Virus record (IMG/VR): IMGVR_UViG_3300045996_000987
Length of the DNA stretch: 64,000 nucleotides
From: a virus
Direction: 5' to 3' (one strand)
In this document: positions 11,942-56,181 of the stretch, one piece after another
Layout of the letters: each line of letters begins with the position of its first letter
Position numbering within the stretch: the first letter of the stretch is position 1
Made by a program: the position numbers and the translations under genes
Notes under the pieces: model-generated
The model's input: only the letters and a program-made list of their open reading frames with translations
The model's database searches: none
What the model was told of the DNA's origin: nothing

Positions 11942-12067
11942 TGCGATCTCGCGGAACGGGGTTACTTGGACACGTAGGCGGTGGACGCCGCCAAGGGCTT
12001 ACCTCTCGGCCGGGAGGAATAGGACAAGGCGACGTAACCGAAAGAGCTACGTCGCCTCGCTAGTGAC

Positions 12068-25092: not shown

Positions 25093-26268
25093 TCAATCAA
25101 TCAGGCGAAGGGGCATGATAAGATTCACGCTGCCCGCGATGCCCACCGGCTCCACGAGCGCCGCGCGCTCCGGGGCCTTGAAGCTCATGCTCACGGCCGC
25201 CGTCGTCAGGACCGCGAGCGTGTCCAGCACGTACTGCCCGTTGAAGCCGATGGTCATCGGCTCGCCGGAGTAGAGAACGTCCATCTCCATCTTCGCATCG
25301 CCCTTGTCGGGCGTGCTCGCCTCGGCCACGAGCAGACCGGGCTTGAGCGTGAACTTGATGCGGTGCGTCTGATCGCTGGCCACCGCGACGATCGGCTTCA
25401 CCCGCTTGATGAACGCCTCGCGCTCCACGATGAGCGTGCGGTCGTTGTCCCTCGGGATCACCTGCGCGTAGTTCGGGTACGGCCCCTCGATGAGCCGGGC
25501 GATGATCTCGCCGCCCTCGAAGACGATCTTGAGGTGCGTCCGGTGCGTGTCGCCCTTCGTCTGCTTCCGCTCCGGCGTGACCGTGAGCGTGAGCTTCCCG
25601 CTCGTGTCCTTGCCGAGCGCCTTGACGAGCAGCTTGAAGACGGTCGGCGGGATGATGAGGTCGGGCAGCTTCTCGTCCCCCTTCACGCGCTTCGAGCAGC
25701 GGAGCGCCATGATGTGCCCGTTCGTGCCCACGGCGCGGATCTCCTGCTCGCGCTCCGAGTAGTGCACGTAGAGGCCGTTCAGGATCGGGCGGCTCTCCTC
25801 CTCGGAGACGCACTCCATCGCGGGGAGCACGAGGCCGAGCAACCGCGAGGCGGGGCCGCTCCACGCCTTGTCCGTCGTCTCCCACTGGAACGTCGGGAAC
25901 TCATCCACCGGGAGACTGAGGAGCCGCGAGCGGATGCCGTCGCGCTCCACCTCGACCTTCGGATTTCCGCCTTCGGTATCGGCCGGGATCAGCGCGAGCG
26001 CCACGGTGGCACCCTTCTCGGCCTTGCCCTTCAAGATCTCCCGAAGATCCTTGAGGGGGACCAGCACGTCGCCGTCCGCCGTCGCCTTGGCATCGGGGAG
26101 GACGAGGGTGGTCATGTTGTCGAGATCGGTCGTGGTGATGGTGACGCGCCCGTCGCGTGCCGTGAACTTGGCGTAGGTGAGCACGGGGAGCGTCGCGCGG
26201 CGGGGGCAGGAGAGGGCGGCGACAGCGAGGATCTGCGTGAGGCTGGCGCGGCTCGTCGTGATACGCAT
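25093..26268 (-). CDS. dnaN: DNA polymerase III beta sliding clamp
   Basis: Aligns along the full length with E. coli DnaN: ATLPVL, TTTDLD, SRLLSLPVDEFP, NGLYVHYSE...AVGTNGH, GPYPNYAQVIPRD, DVLYSGEPMTIGFNGQYVLDTL, MPLRL. Confidence 0.85.
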   Translation of the reverse strand: MRITTSRASLTQILAVAALSCPRRATLPVLTYAKFTARDGRVTITTTDLDNMTTLVLPDAKATADGDVLVPLKDLREILKGKAEKGATVALALIPADTEGGNPKVEVERDGIRSRLLSLPVDEFPTFQWETTDKAWSGPASRLLGLVLPAMECVSEEESRPILNGLYVHYSEREQEIRAVGTNGHIMALRCSKRVKGDEKLPDLIIPPTVFKLLVKALGKDTSGKLTLTVTPERKQTKGDTHRTHLKIVFEGGEIIARLIEGPYPNYAQVIPRDNDRTLIVEREAFIKRVKPIVAVASDQTHRIKFTLKPGLLVAEASTPDKGDAKMEMDVLYSGEPMTIGFNGQYVLDTLAVLTTAAVSMSFKAPERAALVEPVGIAGSVNLIMPLRLID

Positions 26269-32926: not shown

Positions 32927-33688
32927 TCAGGCCGCGCGCCGGGCAGTCGCGATGCGGGCCATCATCTCTTCGCGCCACTCCAGCGCGAAGTCGAGCGAGT
33001 TCTGGAGGTTCGTCTGGTCGTCCGTGCTATGGTACTCCCGGCGAACACGCCGCGCTTGGAAGCTCCACGCGAGGCTGTCGCTCGATGCGAGGAAGGGGGC
33101 CGCACTGATGAGGCCCGTGACCTTGAAGCCGAAGCCGTGCAGCTTGAGCCCATGCGCCTTGAGTGTGCGGATGATGTACTGGCCCGAGAACTCCTGCTGT
33201 CGGCGGCAGACCGTGCCGACCCCGACGAGTGGGTAGGTACGAAGATCCACGCCGGCCGCTGTGTACATGTCGATGTGCCGCTCGTGGTCGCCGTGCATCG
33301 ACCATCCTTGTAGGACCGGGATGAACGGTAGCTCGGGCGCAAGATTGCGGAGACAGAGGAAGTTGTCCACGCTCCTCCGCTGGTGCTCCTCGACCGTGAG
33401 CTTCGTCTTGGCCAGCATGTCAGGCTCGCACATCCAGTCCTGCGGGGCGGCCCATGCCATCTTGCCGATCTCGTCCCGGAATCGGCGCACGAGGCGGACG
33501 TACTCGCGGGGGTCCAGCCGCCACTCCCCATACATCGAGAGTTCGCTGAATCCCCCGCTATCCAAAGCCCATCGGCCGAGCGCCCGAGGGAACGTCTTCC
33601 TCCGTTCCAACTGGCGCCGGCTGATGAACAACGGTACGTCGGTCCTCGCCAGCCACGGGACTACGTGGGTGCCGAGGTAGAACTTCAT
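32927..33688 (-). CDS. dpdA: 7-deazaguanine DNA transglycosylase (TGT family, DpdA-like)
   Basis: ALDSGGFSELSM matches the TGT LTDSGGFQVFSL catalytic segment. Further TGT-like segments FYLGTH, AAPQDWMCEP, IPVLQGWS, PLVGVGTV and SSDSLAWS. Short (253 aa) with no Zn subdomain, as in phage DpdA. Confidence 0.7.
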   Translation of the reverse strand: MKFYLGTHVVPWLARTDVPLFISRRQLERRKTFPRALGRWALDSGGFSELSMYGEWRLDPREYVRLVRRFRDEIGKMAWAAPQDWMCEPDMLAKTKLTVEEHQRRSVDNFLCLRNLAPELPFIPVLQGWSMHGDHERHIDMYTAAGVDLRTYPLVGVGTVCRRQQEFSGQYIIRTLKAHGLKLHGFGFKVTGLISAAPFLASSDSLAWSFQARRVRREYHSTDDQTNLQNSLDFALEWREEMMARIATARRAA

Positions 33689-44573: not shown

Positions 44574-44984
44574 TCAGTCCTCGATGGGGGTGAGGAAGAA
44601 CCACGCGGCAGCGTCAGCATCGCCGGACGTGGAGGGGGACACCTTGCCTGCGTGGTGGCCGATCGACCAACGGATCTCACCGCACCCATTGATTGAGAGC
44701 AGCATCACCCGCTGCCCGTCCTCGGTCGTCCACGCGTGGCCGTAGGTGCGCATCCAGCCCGTGCCCTGCCGATCCACCGGCACGATGCAGTAGGTGTTCC
44801 CCTGCTTCGACCAGTAGATGCGGCTGGAGTCAGCGCCGGGGTAGAGGCTACCAGCGGGAATCTGGACACGGCCGTCCTGCCGCATGTAGAGGACTTCGCG
44901 CTTGCGCGCCTCGCGCTCACGCTCCGCGGCACGCTGCCTCGCACGCTCCAGCCACGCCTCCACCTTGCCGTTTGCGTCGGTCAT
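44574..44984 (-). CDS. Hypothetical protein
   Basis: Upstream context is palindrome, then CAAGTAACC, then CGTAGGAGG, then ATG. Confidence 0.4.
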   Translation of the reverse strand: MTDANGKVEAWLERARQRAAEREREARKREVLYMRQDGRVQIPAGSLYPGADSSRIYWSKQGNTYCIVPVDRQGTGWMRTYGHAWTTEDGQRVMLLSINGCGEIRWSIGHHAGKVSPSTSGDADAAAWFFLTPIED

Positions 44985-45047
44985 ACGGTTACCTCCTACG
45001 GGTTACTTGGATGGGACACGCAGCCTTACTGGGAGTAAGGCTGACAG

Positions 45048-45134
45048 GGGACGAGGCACGAATCGAACGTGCGCCTCCGCGAGAACACGCATTACTGAGC
45101 GAGTCGCGGCGCTCTGCCACTGAGCTACCCGTCC
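45048..45134 (-). tRNA. tRNA-like gene with oversized (21-23 nt) anticodon loop
   Basis: Minus strand. Acceptor GGACGGG/CTCGTCC, D-arm GCTCAGTGGCAGAGC, T-arm GCACGTTCGATTCGTGC; the anticodon stem CCGCG/CGCGG encloses ACTCGCTCAGTAATGCGTGTTCT. Confidence 0.35.
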
Positions 45135-45140
45135 GATCTA

Positions 45141-45428
45141 CTAGATGGCGACGCCGTGGCTGTAGTCGCACACCGTGACGCCACGGGCGCGCAGCTTGGC
45201 GTCGATGTCGAGGATGTTGTTGCGCATCCTCTCGGTGATGTACGAGTGGACACCGGCCTTGCACGCGGCCACCCAGTCGGCCACGGCGACCTTGCGGGCG
45301 CCCTCCAGCGTGGCCACGGCCAGCCGGTGCTCGCGCTGCTCGGCCGTCTCGGTGGCGAGCTTGCGCTGCGCGACCGACTGCTGCGTGCGGCGGATCATCG
45401 TGGCCATCGCCTTGTCGTTCGTGCGCAT
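45141..45428 (-). CDS. Hypothetical protein
   Basis: 95-aa ORF. Confidence 0.4.
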   Translation of the reverse strand: MRTNDKAMATMIRRTQQSVAQRKLATETAEQREHRLAVATLEGARKVAVADWVAACKAGVHSYITERMRNNILDIDAKLRARGVTVCDYSHGVAI

Positions 45429-45498
45429 GATCGGTTACCTCAAGCGAAGGGTTACTTGGAACGGCGGCCTTACTGGCAGTAAGGCAGGGGTACTGCGA

Positions 45499-45555
45499 TG
45501 GCATGCCGCACGAGTCGAACGTGCGCGGAGTAGTGCTCCGGTCCAGACGCATGCC
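45499..45555 (-). ncRNA. Truncated tRNA-like element (acceptor, anticodon-like hairpin and T-arm; no D-arm)
   Basis: T-arm GCACGTTCGACTCGTGC is nearly identical to the element at 45048-45134; flanked by GGCATGC/GCATGCC. Confidence 0.2.
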
Positions 45556-45605
45556 GCTTGGCTAGAGCATGGTACAGCCCTCCATTAGCTGAGGAACATC
45601 GGGGA

Positions 45606-45938
45606 TCAGGCGCACGGGCGGGAGAACGGCCATGCCGTACCGAAGGGACTCACGCTCGGCTCCGTGGGGAACCAGTCCACGTAGATCGGCTCGACCGTGT
45701 GGATGGTCAGAATCTCGCCCTTCGAGGGAAAACCGATCGTCACGGGGTCGCCCTTGTCGAGATCGCGAAGCTGGCCGTGCGTCAGGCCGACCGCCATGCC
45801 GTGCGGGCCACTGGCGATGAGGGCGAAGACCACGCCGTGCGGATCGTTCTCGTGCCCGATGAACTTGGCCACAGCCGGGGCGACGTGCGCATCGACGCTG
45901 CCGTTCCGCCGCTCGCGGGCAATCAGGATCTTGCTCAT
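45606..45938 (-). CDS. Hypothetical protein
   Basis: 110-aa ORF. Confidence 0.4.
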   Translation of the reverse strand: MSKILIARERRNGSVDAHVAPAVAKFIGHENDPHGVVFALIASGPHGMAVGLTHGQLRDLDKGDPVTIGFPSKGEILTIHTVEPIYVDWFPTEPSVSPFGTAWPFSRPCA

Positions 45939-46201: not shown

Positions 46202-46316
46202 GTGACCTCCTACGGGTGACTTGCCTTACTGCCAGTAAAGGACTGCCATGCGCGCCCACGGCCCGACCCGTGGCGACCTTACTGGCGAGTAAGGCCGAAC
46301 CCATGCGCGCTCCACG

Positions 46317-46556
46317 TCACTTCCGGGACTGACAAGGGCAGGCGCAAATCTTCGCCATCGCCGCGTCAATCTTCGCCTGCTCGTTCCGCTGGAACCGTTC
46401 GAGGTTGTGTGCACCCATGATGAACACGACGTGCCGGGGCGCATGCTTGTGCTGGAGCATGCGGAACTCGGCAAGCTGCGCGTCGATGAGGTCCATCGCG
46501 CAGCCAGTGCAGTCGCGCCACGGCTTCGTGTAGACGGCGATCGGGGCGGAAGCCAT
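46317..46556 (-). CDS. Glutaredoxin/NrdH-like redoxin
   Basis: IAVYTKPWRDCTGC (CxxC) and PRHVVFIMG resemble the Grx fold; start refined to MASAPIA. Confidence 0.4.
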   Translation of the reverse strand: MASAPIAVYTKPWRDCTGCAMDLIDAQLAEFRMLQHKHAPRHVVFIMGAHNLERFQRNEQAKIDAAMAKICACPCQSRK

Positions 46557-46756
46557 TGCTGTCTCCAAGTGAAGGGGAAAGCTTACTGCCAGTAAGGGAC
46601 GGGGAAGTGGGCCGGCGGGCATCGAATCCCGCACACGGGGCTGTTATCGAGCGAGGGGTTGCGTGTGTCCGATCTTCGGCCCAATGCGCGCCCACGGTGC
46701 GAGCCGTGGCAGCCTTACTGGGCAGTAAGGCCGAACCCATGCGCGCGTTCCATCTA

Positions 46757-47077
46757 CTAGGCGATCTGCAAGGCAGCCATGTCAGCCTTGCGACGCTTGG
46801 CGGCGTGGTGGTAGCTGGCCAGACCGCGGACGTGGACCGCCTTGCGCTCGAACTCGATGCGGGCGGCCGTGGCGACCTTGCGGTCGAGGACCATGAGGTA
46901 GACGTACTGCTCGAACTTCGCGGCGCGCTCCGCGATGAACGCCTGCGAGTCGCGGTAGTAGGTGCCGTGGTCGGACGTGCTCACCCACGCCAGATTGGAC
47001 CCCTGCTCGCGAAGATCGGCCGCGATGCGAGCGATGGCGCGACGGATGGCGAGGAAGATGCGGACCTTGCGGATCAT
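46757..47077 (-). CDS. Hypothetical protein
   Basis: Start refined to MIRKVRIF. Confidence 0.35.
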   Translation of the reverse strand: MIRKVRIFLAIRRAIARIAADLREQGSNLAWVSTSDHGTYYRDSQAFIAERAAKFEQYVYLMVLDRKVATAARIEFERKAVHVRGLASYHHAAKRRKADMAALQIA

Positions 47078-47207
47078 GGGACGTTCTCCGGAACATGGTG
47101 ACGTGTGCCTTACTGGCGAGTAAGGCGAGGGGACTGCCATGGCGCGGCGAGGGCGCGACCCCTCGCGACCTTACTGGCAGTAAGGCCGAACCGATCCGCG
47201 CGACCGA

Positions 47208-47480
47208 CTACTCGGAAGGATCGACGTGGCCAAGCGCGACCACGTTGAGCGTGCACACGTCGCGATCGTCAAACTTCCCGTGCGGGTCGATCCGGGCGAT
47301 TTCGTGCTCGGGTTGCGTGAGGCAGTCGAGGAACGCCCGCGGCTCGGAGCCGTAGGTGAACGTGACCGCGAAGCGGCTGACGTCGGCGCGAGCGGCGAGC
47401 ATGCGACGGCCGTCGTGCTGGCCAAGGAAGAAAGCGGCGAAGGCAAGCAGAACGGCGGCGACGGTGGCGATGGCGCGCAT
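47208..47480 (-). CDS. Secreted small protein (signal peptide)
   Basis: MRAIATVAAVLLAFAAFFLG N-terminus. Confidence 0.4.
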   Translation of the reverse strand: MRAIATVAAVLLAFAAFFLGQHDGRRMLAARADVSRFAVTFTYGSEPRAFLDCLTQPEHEIARIDPHGKFDDRDVCTLNVVALGHVDPSE

Positions 47481-47689
47481 GGGACGGACTCCGGAACATG
47501 GTGGACGTTACTGGCCAGTAAGGGACGGCCCTACGGTACTGCAACGTGCGCCGTGCCTGCGAAAGCACGCGGGCGGCACCCCTGCCTTACTGGCCAGTAA
47601 TGCCGCCCGAACCGATGCGCACTGCCGTTCGACTACACTGGCGGACGGGCGCGCACGTCTCGTGCGCGTCCGGCCGGCAGTCACCACAC

Positions 47690-48403
47690 TTACGCGACCG
47701 GCATGGCAGCGACGTTCTTGCCGACCGACGTCAGGACCGCGAGAATGTCCTTGGGAGCCATGCCGTCGCGCACGCCAGCCTTGACCGCATCGGCGAAGAT
47801 CGCCGCCATCTTCACGGCGTCCATCTTGCCCGTCGTGTCCACGGCCGGCGCGTCGGTCGCGGGCGCGTCCACCGTGCCGCCCTTGCCACCCTTGCGCGAC
47901 GGCGCCGCGGCGGCCCATCCCTGCTCGATGGCGTAGAAGCTGCCGACGTTGCCCGTGAAGAAACCGACCGCGGTCGCACTGCCGTTCATGGCGTCGCGGA
48001 CGGCGCGCGTCACCTTGCTGTACCGGACGGTGAGCGAACGGTAGGCGGTCACGACGGCCGCCATGCTCTCCGGGAACGTGTCGCACGCGTTGGCGTCGAA
48101 CCGATCTTCATCGCTCGCGAACGCGTCCCACATCTTGCGCTCGGCCGGCGACAGCTTGGCCAGCAACCCCGCCCGGAGCGCGTCCACCACGGCCGCCCGG
48201 AAGCCGTCCAGCATCTTGCGCTCGCTCCACGTCGCGAGCCCCGCGGCGACGGCCGCGATGTAGAAGGACCGGGCCACGTTGTCCATCTTGCGCCCGGCCG
48301 ACCGGCCCAACGTCGCGATGTCGAGGTTGTCCGCGATGGCGCCCGTGATGAACGCGGCGGCGATGGCGAACGTGACGTTGGCGTTGCTCGTGGTCTTCGA
48401 CAT
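47690..48403 (-). CDS. Hypothetical Ala-rich protein; first gene of the leftward block
   Basis: Start refined to MSKTTSNANV with AAAGGTGACCAAA-ATG upstream. Confidence 0.4.
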   Translation of the reverse strand: MSKTTSNANVTFAIAAAFITGAIADNLDIATLGRSAGRKMDNVARSFYIAAVAAGLATWSERKMLDGFRAAVVDALRAGLLAKLSPAERKMWDAFASDEDRFDANACDTFPESMAAVVTAYRSLTVRYSKVTRAVRDAMNGSATAVGFFTGNVGSFYAIEQGWAAAAPSRKGGKGGTVDAPATDAPAVDTTGKMDAVKMAAIFADAVKAGVRDGMAPKDILAVLTSVGKNVAAMPVA

Positions 48404-48445
48404 TTTGGTCACCTTTGGAAACTGGGTTGAACAGTCGCAAGGCAT

Positions 48446-49800
48446 TCGCTTGCGACACTGGCGCGCATCGCTCCGAAACGATGCGGAACCTTGCTGCCGT
48501 TACTGGCCAGTAAGGACCGAACCTATCGCGCCGTGACGGTCGCCCGTCACTTGGCATGCGTTCCACAATCCCGGCCCGACGCAATCCCTTGTGTTGAGAC
48601 TGCCGGAATCACTGGCGAATTCCCCGTGTCACGCCCTGTCACGGCCCGGATTCATCGCCCGATATTCCACCGCTCTTGCTTCCCGCATACTTGGCCCCAT
48701 GGCGTCCGGCCGTCGCGACGTTTCACAACGTTGCCCGGATTGCGTCCGCCATTGCCTAGACCGCATTCCCCGCGATGCACTCGGCTCGCTCTTGCGGTCA
48801 CTCGCTCCACCCGGCGCCATTCTGGCGAACCTTCCGCCCGCAACCCGCGGGTTGCGTTTGAACCTCTGGCACCTTGCCCGTTTCCCTTCCCGCCCTTTGG
48901 GGTCCACCGTCCGGTCGCATCCTTTCGGGATTCCATCCCCGGCCCCATCGGGCACGGTGGCGGAATCCGTTTCGGCGCTCCGGCGGGGCCGCTTCCCGAT
49001 CCGGGGAAGCGGCACGCCCCATTGGCGCGGTGTGCCTTTCGGCACTATGTCAATCAGCATGTGGTCCGGGGCCGATACGTTGCGCATGCTTGCCGCTTGC
49101 CGCTTGTCGCGCGCCTATCGGAATGCCGTCCGCCATTCTGTGCCGTACCGTGCGCCACACGTTCGCTTGCCGCTTGCCGCTTGTCCGTGTGTCCTACGCA
49201 ACCCGCCCGCTTGCTCGTGCATCGGAGTTGCCGCCGGTACGTGCCGGTCTTCCTTACTGCCGGTAACGTTGCGTTACCGTATCCGACCCGCTTGTGTCGG
49301 TCGCGCCACGCGTTGCGCACCGGCCGGGTTGTCTTTTCTGCCCGCCGCTTTCCTTCCGACCCCTCCGCATAAGCCCTTTTACGAATGCGGCCATTTTCCC
49401 AAACCCCCCATTTGCACCGACTTACAGCGCTCGATTTGCCATGCGCAAAACGCGAATGCCCCCGGTTGCCCCCATCGTCCTCGAAGTAACTGAGGACATC
49501 ACGGGAGTAACCGGGGACAACGTGTAAGTACCCGAGAAGTACAGGCTTAAACTCAGTGAATCCGACGAAAACGACCCCTTACGCACCCCCTTCGCGTACG
49601 TATGGGGTAGCTCTCGATCAACTCATGGCCATCTCTTCGCGCTTCCTATATAGGAAAAGACGGGATCGACGTTGGAGTAGGTGATGGGGGCCGAAAAGGG
49701 TGCGGGGCCGCTGAGGGCAGTGGGCCGAAAGTGTCCTATACGGCGTAATCGAGAGGTATCAGGTACCGAGTACCAAGTAACCGATCCTCAAGTAACCGCT
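48446..49800. promoter_or_regulatory. Non-coding divergent control region between the leftward and rightward gene blocks
   Basis: No credible ORF (only Arg/Pro-rich noise frames). Contains GCTTGCC direct repeats, hairpin CCGCTTCCCG...CGGGGAAGCGG, AT-rich palindrome TTCCTATATAGGAA (about 49641-49654), GGGCCGAAA(A)G direct repeats and promoter-like element A at 49732-49758. Confidence 0.5.
49732..49758 (+). promoter_or_regulatory. Promoter-like element TGTCCT-N13-GAGAGGTA, followed by two CAAGTAACC copies
   Basis: tgtcct(49732-37) and gagaggta(49751-58), then accaagtaacc...tcaagtaaccgctc-GTG. Confidence 0.45.
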
Positions 49801-53919: not shown

Positions 53920-54186
53920 ATGGCGAAGAACGCGCTGGAAAACGCGGAAGCGGTACACAACCTGCTGCGACGCTTCGAGGACTTCATCGAGGAGAAGGCG
54001 CTGCGCGCGGAGTTCGAGCGCACGCTGGATGAGGAGGAGCTAGAGCACTACCGCAATACGTTCGATCACGTCGGTGAGCCGCCCAGCGATCTCGCAGATG
54101 CGTGGGGCGAGGACTACGACGACTACGAGGACGAGGAGGAAGCGGGCGGGCTGCCAGACGGATTCCGGTACGATGACGAAGACTGA
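53920..54186 (+). CDS. Hypothetical acidic protein
   Basis: GGAGGG RBS. Confidence 0.4.
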   Translation: MAKNALENAEAVHNLLRRFEDFIEEKALRAEFERTLDEEELEHYRNTFDHVGEPPSDLADAWGEDYDDYEDEEEAGGLPDGFRYDDED

Positions 54187-54637
54187 GTACGTCGTCGGCT
54201 TCGCCTACGACTCCGTTGGTCGTGTCGTCCTCATCCGGAAGACGCGGCCCACATGGCAGGCGGGGAAGCTCAACGGCGTCGGCGGGAAGATCGAAGCGCA
54301 CGAGACGGCGAAGCAGGCGATGGCCAGAGAGTTCGAGGAAGAGACGGGCGTGCAGACGCTCTCGACCGCGTGGCGTCACGTCGGTACGATGATCGGGGCC
54401 GCGTATGTTGTGCACATCCTTGCATTCGAGAGTGACACGATTACACTCGAAGTAGCGACAACGACGGACGAGCAAGTGGTGGTGCGCGACGGCCGGCGAC
54501 TGCCGGAAGACTGCCTCCCGAACGTGCCCTACCTCGTCGGCATGGCGATGGATCGCGACCTCACCGGGGCTCGCCTCGTGTACGGCCTGCCCGAGCCGGT
54601 GACGCAAGAAGAAAGGTGGAAGATTTCGGCAGCCTGA
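54173..54637 (+). CDS. NUDIX hydrolase
   Basis: Nudix box GGKIEAHETAKQAMAREFEEETGV (GGx5Ex7REUxEExGU). Confidence 0.75.
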   Translation: MTKTEYVVGFAYDSVGRVVLIRKTRPTWQAGKLNGVGGKIEAHETAKQAMAREFEEETGVQTLSTAWRHVGTMIGAAYVVHILAFESDTITLEVATTTDEQVVVRDGRRLPEDCLPNVPYLVGMAMDRDLTGARLVYGLPEPVTQEERWKISAA

Positions 54638-54757: not shown

Positions 54758-54852
54758 TACGAGGTGGTGAACGGATAGCACCCGATTGCGCACCGCCCTT
54801 TGAGGGCGGGAAGGCGGGCGGCCCATGCGAGGTTCGAGTCCTCGCCCTCGTA
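54758..54852 (+). tRNA. Irregular tRNA-like gene (possible anticodon TTG; abnormal arm lengths)
   Basis: Acceptor TACGAGG/CCTCGTA, T-arm CGAGGTTCGAGTCCTCG, anticodon-like stem-loop CCGCC-CTTTGAG-GGCGG; the body is about 20 nt too long. Confidence 0.25.
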
Positions 54853-54865
54853 CGTGATGTGTGAT

Positions 54866-54945
54866 GGAACGCAGCGGTACGGCCGCCGTCAGTCCTCACC
54901 GGGCGATTGGCGCACGGCGGGAGGGTTCGACCCCCTCCCCGTTCC
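54866..54945 (+). tRNA. Irregular tRNA-like sequence (T-arm GAGGGTTCGACCCCCTC)
   Basis: T-loop consensus and partial acceptor pairing only. Confidence 0.2.
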
Positions 54946-54950
54946 CTTCG

Positions 54951-55024
54951 GTCCTTCTAGCTCAACTGGTTAGAGCAGCGGACTCTTAATCCGCAGGTTC
55001 TCGGTTCGATCCCGAGGGGGGACA
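54951..55024 (+). tRNA. tRNA-Lys(CTT): tRNA-Lys (anticodon CTT)
   Basis: Cloverleaf: acceptor GTCCTTC/GGGGGAC with two G-U pairs, D-arm GCTCAACTGGTTAGAGC, anticodon loop CTCTTAA, T-arm CTCGGTTCGATCCCGAG. Confidence 0.65.
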
Positions 55025-55166
55025 TAGGTACGGATGCAGTCGGGCCGCGGGAGTACAACATCGGGGGTGTGCGCAAGCACGAGTCGTTCCCCGTCAACGC
55101 TCCGGGTTCCGTAACTTCCGTACCGCTCGATCGAGTGGAAAGACCGGCGAAGACCCGGTACGGACA

Positions 55167-55200
55167 GGCTCCGTTCGTCTAGTCAGATAGGACGCCACTC
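55167..55200 (+). pseudogene. Diverged duplicate of the 5' half of tRNA-Glu (no 3' partner)
   Basis: GGCTCCGTTCGTCTAGTCAGATAGGACGCC shares CCGTTCGTCTA with tRNA-Glu at 55427; no complementary acceptor or T-arm follows. Confidence 0.3.
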
Positions 55201-55426
55201 ACGGCAGGTGTTGGTAGCAGGTGCGGGGCTCGCTTCATGGCGAAGCAATGCGAGGCCACAACCGTCCCGAGGCCCTAAGTTCCCACTGGTAGCTCAGTGG
55301 GCGACCTCCTTCTTAGGGTGTTCCCTCTACTCTTGGAGCGCGAACTAGGTCGCCACTGTGGTCGTAAGCGGGTAGCCTCGGAGTGTCTTGTCTTGGACAG
55401 CCCGCTCGTCGCAGGTGTCAGGTGAA

Positions 55427-55498: not shown

Positions 55499-55938
55499 CT
55501 GCTCTTCGCTGTAACTTGAAGGGACTTAGGGAAGTGTAGGACCAGTACCGGGGCCGACATGGCATCGACTGGTATGTGACACGGAACGTCGAAGTGCGCC
55601 GAGGGACTTCATCTCGCCTCGTAAATCACGGGTGGACAAAACACAAATGCCAGCGATAACCTCGCGGCAGCGGATCGGCTTCTGGCCGAAGTTCTTGGCG
55701 GCGTAGCCGTCGAGAACCCCCACTTCGCAGCGGTCTAACGACCCTCGTAGCGGGTGACGCAACCCTGACGGACTCCGATACAGTCAGGGGCCTTGCATCG
55801 GGCGACACCGGGAGAGACTGGGGGTCTTGTCAGTGTCCCTTACCACGACTGACGACGGTTGGCTCGCTCGCCACGGGACCGTAACACCCGAAGGAGCTAC
55901 GCGCGCTGAACAAGACTGAACGACGATCATATCAACAC

Positions 55939-55963
55939 GGGAGTTCGATTCTCCCCGGCTCCA
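55939..55963 (+). ncRNA. Orphan tRNA 3'-end-like sequence (T-arm, acceptor 3' strand, CCA) ending a roughly 430-nt non-coding stretch
   Basis: GGGAGTTCGATTCTCCCCGGCTCCA; no matching 5' acceptor or D-arm upstream. Confidence 0.3.
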
Positions 55964-56181
55964 CTTGCTCCACGAGGTCACCATGCAGGTCATGTATCCA
56001 CGGACGCGAGTAACCGTACCGACAATGGAAGACGTGAAGAAGACGTGGGCGAGCCTACGTCATCGTGTGAAGTACGCGGTGAGCAAGACCTACCGTGAGC
56101 AGTTGGAACGGGAACGCGCAGAGCAGCGCGTGCGGGCCATGATGTACCTGCGGACGCCACCCGTCGTATAGCTCGCGGTAC

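Follow-up and report, generated by a model that had tools for sequence, protein, structure and literature searches.

Elements 1 and 2, located at 45048-45134 and 45499-45555 on the minus strand of the window (the whole 64,000 nt of IMG/VR virus record IMGVR_UViG_3300045996_000987 that were analysed), are real tRNA-like sequences which cannot decode. It is highly probable that element 1 is a non-decoding, tRNA-derived gene, that element 2 is its relative without a D-arm, and that both belong to a structured family of at least eight members, consisting of three elements with a T-loop (elements 1 and 2, and IG5b) and five three-way junctions (IG4 to IG8). The family spans 45.0-48.5 kb, i.e., the promoter-proximal 3.5 kb of the leftward gene block, with the junctions at 46250-48531. 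Both elements reported in the initial annotation are real, but the block contains at least eight, and two more are situated beside the tRNA cluster. By analogy to the t-elements of plant mitochondria, the elements most likely mark sites at which mRNA is cut or stabilised.

Element 1 is a complete tRNA-like cloverleaf. ARAGORN, one of the checks proposed at the outset, calls a tRNA at 45047-45134 of the minus strand, and Rfam RF00005 aligns with every arm at 50.2 bits (gathering score 29), a 23-nt insert replacing the 7-nt anticodon loop; the default filters of Rfam missed the element. The acceptor (45128-45134/45049-45055; GGACGGG/CTCGTCC) comprises 7 bp, one of which is a G.U pair (G6.U67), so that its previous description as perfect was slightly generous. 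The D-arm (GCTC-AGTGGCA-GAGC) and the T-arm (GCACG-TTCGATT-CGTGC; 45056-45072) are present as described, in the sequence and the RF00005 alignment alike, and the anticodon stem CCGCG/CGCGG (45105-45109/45077-45081) indeed encloses an oversized loop of 23 nt (45082-45104, ACTCGCTCAGTAATGCGTGTTCT), 16 nt in excess. The variable region is AGGC, the discriminator is a C (45048), and CCA is not encoded. By inspection, all tertiary invariants are kept (U8, A14, G18G19, A21, G15/C48, G53-C61, U54U55C56/A58), and no structural determinant of the L-shape is lost. The minimum free energy (MFE) structure is the cloverleaf, with a modest z of -0.8. Element 1, which begins 6 nt past the stop codon of gene 45141-45428, shows the structural features of a tRNA (cloverleaf, score above gathering, invariants), in contrast to element 2.

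Since its anticodon loop is replaced by a 23-nt segment with a palindrome core, element 1 cannot read a codon. The arrangement U33-NNN-R37 occurs in none of the eight enumerated 7-mers composed of a prefix and a suffix of the loop, the sole options with U33 having GUU followed by C37, and no 16-nt excision gives a usable anticodon loop. Element 2, with a 5-nt loop (CACUA), likewise lacks a 7-nt anticodon loop. Group I introns are self-splicing, have a length of roughly 200 nt or more and contain a P1-P9 core; the insert of only 16 nt is far below this size, and zero matches to Intron_gpI or other ribozymes were obtained from Rfam. The bulge-helix-bulge consists of two 3-nt bulges on opposite strands with a 4-bp helix between them, usually at 37/38. 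In the MFE structure of element 1 an extra helix adds about 6 bp to the anticodon arm, the only bulge (UCU, 3 nt) being on the 3' strand and the 5' strand having none, and the host is bacterial, as the tmRNA found by ARAGORN indicates, so that an archaeal or eukaryal intron was rejected as well. To our knowledge, bacteria are without a tRNA splicing endonuclease. Of the earlier suggestion of a tRNA with a mini-insertion, the tRNA body and the 16-nt, palindrome-related insertion are retained, but not the decoding tRNA, because no excision yields U33-NNN-R37 and the signatures of group I and bulge-helix-bulge introns are absent.

That element 1 is a functional tRNA all the same, its insert being removed or tolerated by an unrecognised mechanism as in tRNA-Ser(GCT) of Streptomyces, appears very improbable. 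The ARAGORN call is of the intron type, and in 16 Streptomyces species a loop of about 23 nt, the size of that of element 1, occurs together with a compensated extra helix in an otherwise invariant body, but excision restores a canonical loop neither there nor in element 1. Moreover, the insert of element 1 is a copy of a local palindrome, and discriminator C73 without G-1 matches no bacterial identity set. Similar to element 1, the Streptomyces variants and an Aquabacterium gene (L175) combine intact acceptor, D- and T-arms with a longer structured anticodon arm, and in the T-arm region the latter is identical to element 1 over 21 of 21 nt, GTGGCAGAGC being likewise common to both. Unlike element 1, they are stand-alone chromosomal genes with inserts unrelated to the phage palindrome, and CCA is encoded in L175. 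The gene context of L175 was uninformative, and no description of these anticodon-less genes was found in the literature searched.

The palindrome-core copy in the loop of element 1 (ACTCGCTCAGTAA, 45092-45104, minus strand) is identical in 12 of 13 positions, with one gap, to the core of palindrome variant CCTTACTCGCCAGTAAGG (P = 0.003 for shuffled loops; P = 0.012 in comparison to random 23-mers of the window, most of these being true palindromes). Of its two halves, the right half-site CAGTAATG agrees in 7 of 8 positions, and the left one is poor. The likeness of the insert to an operator half-site, which had been pointed out before, is real and even stronger than claimed. A palindrome referred to as P2 follows 8-22 nt downstream in six of the seven elements tallied. 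In case of element 1 it is CCTTACTCCCAGTAAGG (IG1; 45024-45040, minus strand), 8 nt after the element and ahead of CCAAGTAACCC, GGAGGTAACCG and the start codon (ATG) of gene 44574-44984; in case of element 2 it is CCTTACTGCCAGTAAGG (IG2; 45468-45484, minus strand), located 15 nt after the element.

Element 2 (45499-45555, minus strand) was delineated by its MFE structure, its T-arm identity and covariance model R1, which was built from IG4 to IG6. It folds into the 7-bp helix GGCAUGC/GCAUGCC, an 8-nt linker, the hairpin CGGAG-CACUA-CUCCG and a 6-bp T-arm with loop UUCGACU, which abuts the 3' closing strand, and the discriminator is an A at 45499. The MFE corresponds to z = -2.85, with 2 of 200 shuffles equally stable, and to z = -2.06 with flanks. 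R1 matches the element over its full length but weakly (14 bits), zero Rfam matches were found even at E<=10, and a D-arm is absent. The T-arms of elements 1 and 2 are near-identical, differing in one loop base, and the 17-mer GCACGTTCGAYTCGTGC occurs in exact form in these two elements only within the window; the acceptor helices differ in sequence and both are fully paired. MFE structure and 17-mer are in good agreement with what had been noted of this element, i.e., the near-identical T-arm, the acceptor-like pairing GGCATGC/GCATGCC and the lack of a D-arm. The unusually long intergenic gaps noted on the same occasion amount to about 156 and 177 nt around elements 1 and 2. The 50 nt upstream of element 2 were considered as its missing 5' half and rejected, with no match to a tRNA model and five of seven possible outer pairs. 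Similarly, a UCAG(C)UAAU hairpin common to IG1 and IG2 was discarded; both regions contain the sequence but pair it in different registers, and with z = +0.99 the stretch in IG2 does not fold stably.

The T-arm is that of actinobacterial tRNA-Arg(CCT) and tRNA-Ser(GCT). A derivation of element 1 from an identified host tRNA was nevertheless rejected, and no parent tRNA was identified, because the acceptor and anticodon stems are unlike those of the tRNAs with the same T-arm. The proposal that the elements are attP-like sites, i.e., host tRNA fragments used for integration, is close to refuted. It can draw on a T-arm 19-mer identical to tRNA-Arg(CCT) of uncultured Actinomycetes/Thermoleophilia and to Streptomyces tRNA-Ser(GCT), and on genuine att-type duplications of the tRNA-Arg 3' half in those MAGs, but element 1 is a complete cloverleaf rather than a fragment, element 2 possesses a 5' closing strand of its own, the stems differ as described, and two copies are present, far from the sole recombinase (serine type, 31 kb away). 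In addition, the likely host phylum is Gemmatimonadota, as suggested by the similarity of the clamp protein, and no T-arm match was found in Gemmatimonadota.

The five junctions share one topology, all on the minus strand. IG4 (46250-46310), supported by MFE, alignment and pair counts, and R1 (90.7 bits, as a training sequence), consists of the closing helix GCGCGC/GCGCGC, the linker AUGGGUU, a palindrome hairpin as arm 1 and CCACGG-GUCGGG-CCGUGG as arm 2. IG5 (46686-46746; MFE, alignment, R1) follows the plan of IG4 with the arm 2 loop CUCGCA; in both IG4 and IG5 the closing strands (GCGCGC) are self-complementary and at the same time direct repeats. In IG6 (47142-47201; MFE, pair counts, R1) the closing helix GCGCGG/CCGCGC and arm 2 CGAGGG/CCCUCG include three doubly compensated pairs in comparison to IG4 and IG5. 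Model R1 recovers the two junctions outside its training set in full length. IG7 (47546-47622; 40 bits, E = 3e-7; MFE z = -2.67) has the closing helix GUGCGC/GCGCAC, a longer arm 1 tipped by the palindrome and the arm 2 CGUGC-UUUCGCAG-GCACG. IG8 (48461-48531; 33 bits, E = 1.6e-5), which is situated not between genes but in the leader preceding gene 47690-48445, the first of the leftward ones, has a 5-bp closing helix and the arm 2 GCAUCGUU-UCGG-AGCGAUGC, and an independent MFE prediction gave the same topology (z = -1.99). The third element with acceptor and T-arm, IG5b (46608-46683, minus strand), was obtained in a minihelix scan and pairs UGGGCCG/CGGCCCA and GCGGG-AUUCGAUG-CCCGC around a non-canonical middle. 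It is located 2 nt past the IG5 junction, as in tandem tRNAs, and is the weakest member; confidence in it is moderate, because the MFE structure retains the closing helix and loses the T-arm.

All members follow a common plan of closing helix, arm and T-arm-like hairpin, the hairpin directly adjoining the closing strand on the 3' side. Closing helix and arm 2 form a stack of 11-13 bp with 0 mismatches and UCG in every arm 2 loop (seven elements tallied), a pattern into which IG8 fits with 5 + 8 bp. Over the eight elements about 95 bp of closing helix and arm 2 are mismatch-free, in spite of widely different sequences. In IG4 to IG6, 100% of the aligned cells are paired, the three pairs changed on both sides lie in the closing helix and arm 2, and register slides reduce pairing to 29-52%; this comparative evidence stems from paralogues within one genome, of which only these three align unambiguously. 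Like that of element 1, the MFE z-scores of the other elements are modest (-1.4 to -2.9). Furthermore, the five junctions are without a canonical 7-nt T-loop or a D-loop partner, and the N-1 and discriminator bases are not conserved. In the window, the minihelix scan detected 11 acceptor and T-arm architectures compared to 3.1 (maximum 6) in shuffles, with 5 of the 11 being true tRNAs and the tmRNA. As modelled, the common denominator of the family is the 11-13-bp coaxial stack, i.e., a predicted tRNA "minihelix". Since element 2 and IG5b lack the palindrome arm 1 and keep closing helix and T-arm, this minihelix and not the palindrome P1 is common to all eight.

The initial annotation had also offered decayed tRNA copies as an explanation. 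In its extended form, a tRNA-bearing intergenic module was copied between genes, a palindrome entered the anticodon loop, and functionless copies have been eroding since. We regard this as unlikely, although several observations fit it. The tRNA-likeness is graded from element 1 via element 2 and IG5b to junctions with T-loop remnants, the loop of element 1 is disrupted by palindrome-like sequence, "GGCGCACGTT|GCAGTACC" of IG7 looks as if downstream sequence had been joined to the 5' half of the T-arm of IG2, a tract reading GT(A)CCCCT..GCCTTACT is common to IG1, IG2 and IG6, and more tRNA-like debris is found beside the real tRNA cluster. Unlike in an unconstrained pseudogene, however, decoding is lost while the helices are perfect in 8 of 8 elements and compensated; decay leaves these closing helices and T-arm-like hairpins unexplained, and it fits neither the approximately 95 mismatch-free base pairs at such sequence divergence, nor the double compensation between IG4/5 and IG6, nor the intact tertiary invariants of element 1. 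Besides, the flanking genes are unrelated, so that the copies did not just spread together with duplicated genes.

Arm 1 of the junctions is a palindrome typical of protein-binding operators, and thus the junction "structure" may partly be a by-product of DNA symmetry. Conserved inverted repeats are also known from Streptomyces phage phiC31. Accordingly, the palindromes could be putative repressor or activator operators and the GC hairpin, closed by a helix, a factor-independent terminator or an insulator separating small transcription units, tRNA-likeness being an evolutionary leftover without bearing on function, a reading at the DNA level which we consider doubtful. It is in agreement with the occurrence of about 30 palindromes in the genome, nearly all directly upstream of leftward gene starts, with the P1-P2 spacing of 53-132 bp in IG4 to IG7, to which the degenerate copy in element 1, 62 bp from P2 and near the 61 bp of IG6, conforms, and with the presence of a palindrome that precedes a GC hairpin elsewhere, too (41.7 and 27.8 kb). 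It is at odds with the retention of closing helix and T-arm in element 2 and IG5b, which have no palindrome in arm 1. Neither intrinsic terminators nor sigma-70 promoters were predicted on the minus strand between 44.4 and 47.8 kb, and no U-tract follows any element. Finally, an operator needs neither compensated closing helices nor G.U pairs, which occur on the sense strand only (in the acceptor of element 1 and in the arm 1 flanks of IG4 to IG6); the reverse strand yields a far lower R1 score.

All elements are located on the sense strand, either in gaps between co-oriented genes or in their leader. Of the eight, four begin 6-10 nt past a stop codon, and element 2 and IG7 start 50-67 nt past one. 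The flanking proteins, e.g., those of genes 44574-44984 and 47690-48445, are ORFans that are not paralogous, and for this reason the elements are conserved independently of the genes; a co-duplication of gene and intergenic region was rejected, since no paralogy was observed among the proteins. Unrelated ORFans of the same orientation parted by conserved structured repeats bring to mind cassette boundaries, i.e., sites for homologous or site-specific recombination, comparable to the attC sites of integrons, which fold when the DNA is single-stranded, or to the "boundary sequences" of phages. Structure is more conserved than sequence, as would suit such sites, and G.T pairs would be tolerable in folded single-stranded DNA. 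Even so, this origin is improbable: the only recombinase seen is the large serine type 31 kb away, a tyrosine (IntI-like) recombinase was not found, and the full cloverleaf, the tertiary invariants and the T-loops are left unexplained.

Relatives of this genome were detected neither by megablast or blastn in the phage collection nor by tblastn with the recombinase. With the clamp protein, tblastn gave only matches of <30%, and the best non-self match of this protein is cellular and 40% identical. Searches of IMG/VR and the metagenome collection for exact and composite palindrome signatures returned only chance or unrelated hits among the matches listed. Contig L001 represents the same phage, and due to its identical sequence it gives no covariation information.

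Against this background we tentatively favour the interpretation that the elements are non-decoding, tRNA-derived signals for RNA processing or stability, of a type recognised by RNase P and RNase Z. The leftward block would be transcribed as one polycistronic RNA, in which each element could fold and be recognised by the host enzymes that process tRNA ends. Cleavage by RNase P would presumably occur where the closing helix begins on its 5' side, a few nucleotides past the upstream stop codon, and cleavage by RNase Z or an equivalent past the discriminator. The small early genes would thereby be split into individual mRNAs with defined, structure-protected ends, and expression might be affected accordingly; the next mRNA would then have the hairpin of palindrome P2 close to its newly formed 5' end. 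None of the bona fide tRNAs of the genome encodes CCA. tRNAs of this kind imply a host RNase Z/CCA-adding pathway acting on acceptor/T-arm minihelices. Among about 50 ORFs scanned, no RNA enzymes (Ro60, CCA-adding enzyme, RNA ligase, RNases) were found, only a NUDIX hydrolase and a TGT/DpdA-like protein; the lack of an RNA-processing gene of the phage is not decisive, since host enzymes would suffice. Of the three options in the initial annotation, the tRNA mimic comes closest, but the evidence favours cis-acting punctuation of RNA and not a demonstrated regulatory mimicry.

Punctuation by tRNAs has precedents in organelles. In mitochondria, tRNAs between ORFs reportedly serve as cleavage signals in the polycistronic transcript (Ojala et al., 1981), and t-elements of plant mitochondria were reportedly described by Hanic-Joyce et al. 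(1990). Element 2 and the junctions, with closing helix, linker, arm and T-arm, resemble D-armless mitochondrial tRNAs, but mitochondrial tRNAs also decode, which the phage elements cannot. Plant t-elements are non-canonical cloverleaves with a conserved T-arm which lie in mRNA precursors beside coding regions, are cleaved by RNase P and RNase Z, and whose ends coincide with mRNA termini; these organellar ends were mapped experimentally and carry non-encoded C or CA (Forner et al. 2007, PMC1920247). Elements 1 and 2 and IG5b resemble them in anatomy and placement: an acceptor helix and a conserved T-arm in a non-canonical cloverleaf are present in all three, whereas IG4 to IG8 keep just the 11-13-bp stack and a remnant of the UCG loop. 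By position, the elements adjoin coding regions on the sense strand, an assignment supported by the G.U pairs and the R1 scores. In contrast to plant t-elements, they belong to a phage-like bacterial element, and five members lack the T-loop consensus and carry a palindromic, operator-like arm.

Non-decoding tRNA-like folds with a reduced anticodon arm also occur in mascRNA/MALAT1 and MEN-beta, where they serve solely as the RNase P/Z signal by which the preceding RNA obtains its 3' end; unlike the phage elements, they belong to nuclear lncRNAs of eukaryotes. RF01684 gave chance-level matches only (13-16 bits near 54.8-54.9 kb) and none at elements 1 and 2. Among phage small RNAs, C4 antisense RNA (P1/P7) and the stable "species 1/2" RNAs from the tRNA cluster of T4, which are tRNA-like, are matured by RNase P via mimicry of acceptor and T-arm, and C4 acts by exposed loops on complementary mRNA sites. 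Sequence or structural homology to these RNAs is absent, and C4 is a single regulator and not a repeated intergenic family. In YrlA the acceptor end of the tRNA-like module is closed, and the termini of the RNA lie in the Ro-binding stem. A relation to YrlA (RF02553) or to the tRNA-like domain of tmRNA was rejected, the only match (14 bits, chance level) being located at 54921-54976 and not at the elements; a Ro60/TROVE protein was not found in the genes scanned. "tRNA-Other" of Bacillus cereus is a pseudo-tRNA outside translation with a cellular role (PMC3399842). It differs from the phage elements in being a single chromosomal gene with a near-normal anticodon arm, in serving no intergenic punctuation and in not belonging to a phage.

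If the transcript is cleaved as proposed, this would be, as far as found, the first tRNA-type punctuation in a bacterial virus: the phage would cut its early polycistronic transcript with the tRNA-processing enzymes of the host, by means of signals ranging from a full cloverleaf to minimal junctions, and stages in the conversion of a tRNA gene into a pure RNA-processing signal would be visible. If only decay or operator/terminator modules are involved, a useful description of the regulatory architecture remains for a genome without sequenced relatives found in the collections searched.

Rather far-fetched is the idea that RNase P/Z would excise element 1 as a stable, tRNA-shaped small RNA acting in trans. 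Its loop would display CAGUAAU(G), i.e., the right half of the palindrome and the complement of the left half C(C/A)UUACUG, with potential left-half targets directly ahead of the start codon in about 30 genes; to CAUUACUG at 47595-47602 the loop would be perfectly complementary. Pairing of loop and site could open the palindrome hairpins and tune translation or processing of most leftward genes, or element 1 might be an RNA decoy for a putative palindrome-binding protein. In a wider sense, there may be a class of anticodon-less tRNAs, so far unrecognised, in which a functional arm replaces the anticodon, and to which element 1, the Aquabacterium gene and the tRNA-Ser variants of Streptomyces would belong. 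Since element 1 was missed by Rfam in default mode and the 16 Streptomyces variants were missed by ARAGORN, anticodon-less tRNA-like genes are probably under-counted.

Both tRNA-like elements proposed in the initial annotation, element 1 (45048-45134, minus strand) and the D-armless element 2 (45499-45555, minus strand), are present in the sequence, and its account of them was borne out by the minus strand of 44700-45900. ARAGORN, named there as a check, calls a tRNA at 45047-45134, labelled Glu-CTC with the anticodon put at an impossible loop position. In a search of the 1-kb region with lax filters, element 1 scored 50.2 bits against the Rfam tRNA model (gathering score 29), with an alignment that spans the acceptor, D-arm, anticodon stem, variable region, and T-arm and contains a 23-nt insertion in place of the expected 7 nt. 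Due to its speed filters, the default-filter, gathering-threshold Rfam scan of the whole window missed this match. On inspection, all tertiary invariants are kept (U8, A14, G18G19, A21, G15/C48, G26/A44, G53-C61, and U54-U55-C56-R57-A58). The acceptor stem, described before as perfect, is present and contains a single G.U pair; C occupies the discriminator position, and the element does not encode CCA. The near identity claimed for both T-arms was recovered as an exact 17-mer, found in the window only at elements 1 and 2.

The loop of element 1, ACUCGCUCAGUAAUGCGUGUUCU, offers no U33-NNN-R37 reading, and any contiguous 16-nt deletion from it results in C33 or U33-GUU-C37. Judged from its sequence, element 1 appears incapable of decoding, and a spliced or otherwise functional tRNA is close to excluded. 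In the MFE structure, a second helix (A-U, C-G, U.U mismatch, C-G, G-C, C-G) prolongs the anticodon stem, capped by UCAGUAAU and with one 3-nt bulge in the 3' strand only. Two types of introns were rejected as origin of the insert, a group I intron due to the far too short length and the lack of any intron or ribozyme match in Rfam, and a bulge-helix-bulge intron due to the absence of the motif. Loop nucleotides 1-13, ACTCGCTCAGTAA, can be aligned with a single gap to the core of CCTTACTCGCCAGTAAGG, a variant of the palindrome situated at 47108-47125 and 46277-46294, and agree with it in 12 of 13 positions (P = 0.003 against shuffled loops). The noted likeness to an operator half-site thus holds, and the insert goes beyond a half-site, being a degenerate copy of the palindrome itself. 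UGU, which TGT enzymes recognise as their motif, occurs in the loop as well. A TGT/DpdA-like gene is located at 32927-33688 (minus strand; strong match to the phage ‘queuine tRNA-ribosyltransferase’ family PHROG 1279, E = 9e-83), and its product is probably a DpdA-type 7-deazaguanine DNA-modification enzyme.

The window derives from a JGI metagenome contig of ~66 kb, has a G+C content of 65%, and carries genes directed leftward to ~49.5 kb and rightward beyond. Besides this gene, a large serine recombinase, a RuvB-like ATPase, a beta clamp, an exonuclease, an HNH endonuclease, four tRNAs, and a tmRNA are encoded, and most remaining genes are ORFans. The palindrome, CCTTACT-N(1-4)-CAGTAA(G/C)G (16-18 bp), occurs in ~30 copies between 27.8 and 49.3 kb, nearly all just upstream of leftward gene starts (e.g., 45024-45040, 45468-45484, and 47108-47125) and often 0-6 nt from the ATG without a Shine-Dalgarno sequence; half-sites gave 66 matches compared to 6.6 expected. 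Its appearance is that of a family of operators, similar in that case to the conserved inverted repeats of phiC31, or of an RNA hairpin that serves leaderless mRNAs as a signal. Enrichment on the coding strand was also observed for a second motif, CAAGTAACC. The intergenic regions IG1 and IG2, which hold elements 1 and 2, respectively, have the order T-arm, palindrome, CCAAGTAACCC, GAGGTAACCG, and ATG in common. Across the window, CCAAGTAACCC has 43 matches with at most 2 mismatches compared to 7.5 expected (e.g., 45000-45010, 45449-45459, and 11959-11969), almost always on the local coding strand (minus to 49 kb, plus beyond) and ahead of the ribosome-binding site; it might serve as a promoter or leader element specific to the phage.

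The combination of a T-arm and, directly behind it, the 3' strand of a 7-bp helix was observed 11 times in the window compared to 3.1 times (maximum 6) in shuffles. Five of these architectures are the true tRNAs and the tmRNA, and the others include a third element, IG5b in IG5 (46608-46683), and two beside the tRNA cluster. The long intergenic regions IG4-IG8 of the leftward block show a clear relationship among themselves and a weaker one to IG1 and IG2, with pairwise z-scores of up to 38; GCCAT(C/G)GCAGT(A)CCCCT-GCCTTACT is common to IG2 and IG6. By folding, IG4, IG5, IG6, and IG7 each form the same three-way junction, consisting of a 6-bp closing helix, a 7-nt linker AU(N)GGUU, the upstream palindrome (P1) as a 10-bp hairpin (arm 1), and a 6-7-bp GC hairpin (arm 2) that directly abuts the 3' closing strand. 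When element 2 is folded alone, GGCAUGC and GCAUGCC pair as a 7-bp closing helix, which encloses an 8-nt linker, a hairpin of 5 bp with five loop nucleotides, and a 6-bp T-arm (loop UUCGACU) that abuts the 3' closing strand (z = -2.85); no Rfam model matches it. The IG4-IG7 topology is that of element 2, of element 1 minus its D-arm, and hence of a D-armless tRNA. The tRNA-like family is real and larger than the two elements of the initial annotation, which were both correct as part of an incomplete set: elements 1 and 2, IG5b, and the junctions of IG4-IG8 make up eight members.

IG4, IG5, and IG6 can be aligned unambiguously, and each of the 66 cells of this alignment is paired, compared to 29-52% if the 3' partners are shifted by 1-3 columns. 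Three pairs, of which two belong to arm 2 and one to the closing helix, are changed on both sides, and two arm 1 flank pairs alternate between G-C and G.U. The closing helix of IG6, GCGCGG/CCGCGC, remains complementary and is no longer a direct repeat, which argues for a real helix rather than a duplication scar. The covariance model R1, trained on IG4, IG5, and IG6 only, recovered IG7 (40 bits, E = 3e-7) and the new member IG8 at 48461-48531 (33 bits, E = 1.6e-5), both in full length on the minus strand, compared to ~20 bits on the opposite strand of these loci; folded independently, IG8 forms the same junction. Element 2 was aligned by R1 in full length, albeit weakly (14 bits, E = 0.66). 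In a structure-guided tally, closing helix and arm 2 are free of mismatches in all eight elements and stack to 11-13 bp, compared to 12 bp in the acceptor/T-arm minihelix of a tRNA, and each arm 2 loop contains UCG (UUCGAUU, UUCGACU, AUUCGAUG, UUUCGCAG, GUCGGG, CUCGCA, GUCGCG, and UCGG). The downstream palindrome, P2, begins 8-22 nt past the element in 6 of the 7 elements tallied without IG8. Between the stop codon of the gene 47690-48445 and the IG7 junction, 67 nt are filled by a long irregular hairpin (47623-47692, minus strand; tip GCGCACG-AGA-CGUGCGC, z = -2.49).

Passive decay of tRNA copies would account for the graded series of tRNA-likeness and for the palindrome in the loop of element 1, but leaves ~95 perfectly paired, compensated base pairs between unrelated genes unexplained and is considered unlikely. 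Hardly more likely are DNA-level operator and terminator modules: they would explain the palindromes, the spacing between P1 and the downstream palindrome P2, and the degenerate copy in element 1, which lies 62 bp from P2 as in IG6, yet elements without P1 still keep the closing helix and T-arm, and terminator-like U-tracts are absent. Structured repeats separating ORFans might also mark recombination sites at cassette boundaries, but no matching recombinase was found, and this reading is very improbable. Paralogy among the flanking genes was not found, and two flanking genes tested had no homologue among 5.8 billion proteins.

Common to all eight elements is the minihelix and not the palindrome. 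Minihelices are the smallest substrate that RNase P, RNase Z, and the CCA-adding enzyme accept, and since the phage's own tRNAs lack an encoded CCA, a host RNase Z/CCA pathway is implied. The elements are on the sense strand and separate small, unrelated genes near the promoter end of the block. Four of the eight begin directly after a stop codon (6-10 nt behind it), and where two occur they are arranged in tandem (2 nt between the IG5 junction and IG5b). This placement fits cis-acting processing or end-protection signals of a polycistronic early transcript, and we tentatively propose such a tRNA-type function, in which the minihelix fold would lead to cleavage and cleavage to an effect on expression; we infer both steps. 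Mitochondrial punctuation, t-elements, and mascRNA are known tRNA-like processing signals. The closest described analogue are the t-elements of plant mitochondria, cloverleaves that depart from the canonical form but have a conserved T-arm; their ends coincide with those of mRNAs, and RNase P/Z cleave them (PMC1920247). Non-translating pseudo-tRNAs are known from bacteria (PMC3399842), and phage surveys list ‘tRNA-like’ candidates without assigned function (PMC10690425). If true, a repeated tRNA-derived family punctuating a phage operon, from full cloverleaf to minimal junctions, would be a novel form of these known signals, one that has taken up the phage's own palindrome as ‘anticodon’ arm.

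DNA and protein searches of a phage collection, scans of IMG/VR and a metagenome collection for exact and composite motifs, and protein searches revealed no relatives, only the source contig, an identical 1-kb fragment from another sample, and chance matches. All comparative evidence therefore comes from paralogues of one genome, which is the main weakness of the case. For the beta clamp (25093-26268, minus strand), the best non-self matches are cellular proteins of Gemmatimonadota (Longimicrobiaceae, Gemmatimonadales) with ~40% identity, which confirms the lineage as unsampled; they suggest Gemmatimonadota as host phylum.

A genome scan with the T-arm 19-mer GCGCACGTTCGAYTCGTGC gave 119 loci in five groups: tRNA-Ser(GCT) of Streptomyces (the majority), tRNA-Arg(CCT) of uncultured Actinomycetes, Gaiellales, and Thermoleophilia, bare 3' halves of tRNA-Arg(CCT), a tRNA-like gene of Aquabacterium, and matches in coding sequences that look like chance. 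The bare halves, at seven loci in MAGs of Actinomycetes and Thermoleophilia, begin in the anticodon loop, reach the 3' terminus of the tRNA, and have unrelated sequence in front of them; they are classic att-type duplications left behind by integrated elements. Element 1 shares only D-arm and T-arm with tRNA-Arg and differs in acceptor and anticodon stems. A parent tRNA cannot be named, and an att site does not fit and is close to excluded. At the same tRNA-Ser(GCT) locus, 16 Streptomyces species carry an invariant tRNA-Ser body with a loop of ~23 nt, the ends of which form an extra 4-bp helix (99% paired, both-side changes in two pairs). None of these 16 variants was called by ARAGORN, and no excision gives back UUGCUAA. 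In Aquabacterium sp. A7-Y (locus L175, 6284-6370, minus strand), the T-arm region is identical to that of element 1 in 21 of 21 nt; the gene encodes CCA and has a reduced D-arm and a long closed ‘anticodon’ hairpin with a GCA triloop (z = -2.55), and its neighbouring genes are uninformative. The window is therefore not the only place with tRNA-like genes that lack an anticodon and retain an intact body, and no description of this kind was found in the literature searched.

Two further anticodon-less tRNA-like folds, both with weak Rfam matches, are located just upstream of tRNA-Lys on the plus strand: 54758-54853 forms a cloverleaf of four arms, in which a UUG triloop closes the 7-bp ‘anticodon’ stem and the T-arm reads CGAGG-UUCGAGU-CCUCG, and 54866-54946 has the acceptor GGAACG/CGUUCC and a 7-bp T-arm. 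The region 55160-55300 (plus strand) is similar to the 5' half of tRNA-Glu next to it (GGCTCCGTTCGTCTAG...) and includes a D-arm-like GGTAGCTCAGTGGGCGACC; it contains no complete tRNA, folds no better than shuffles, and is likely tRNA debris. Directly upstream of the tRNA/tmRNA cluster, a NUDIX hydrolase is encoded (54074-54637, plus strand); as NUDIX enzymes include RNA 5'-pyrophosphohydrolases, a role in RNA turnover is conceivable. The tag peptide predicted for the tmRNA itself (55550-55966, plus strand), ASDNLAAADRLLAEVLGGVAVENPHFAAV, is unusually long.
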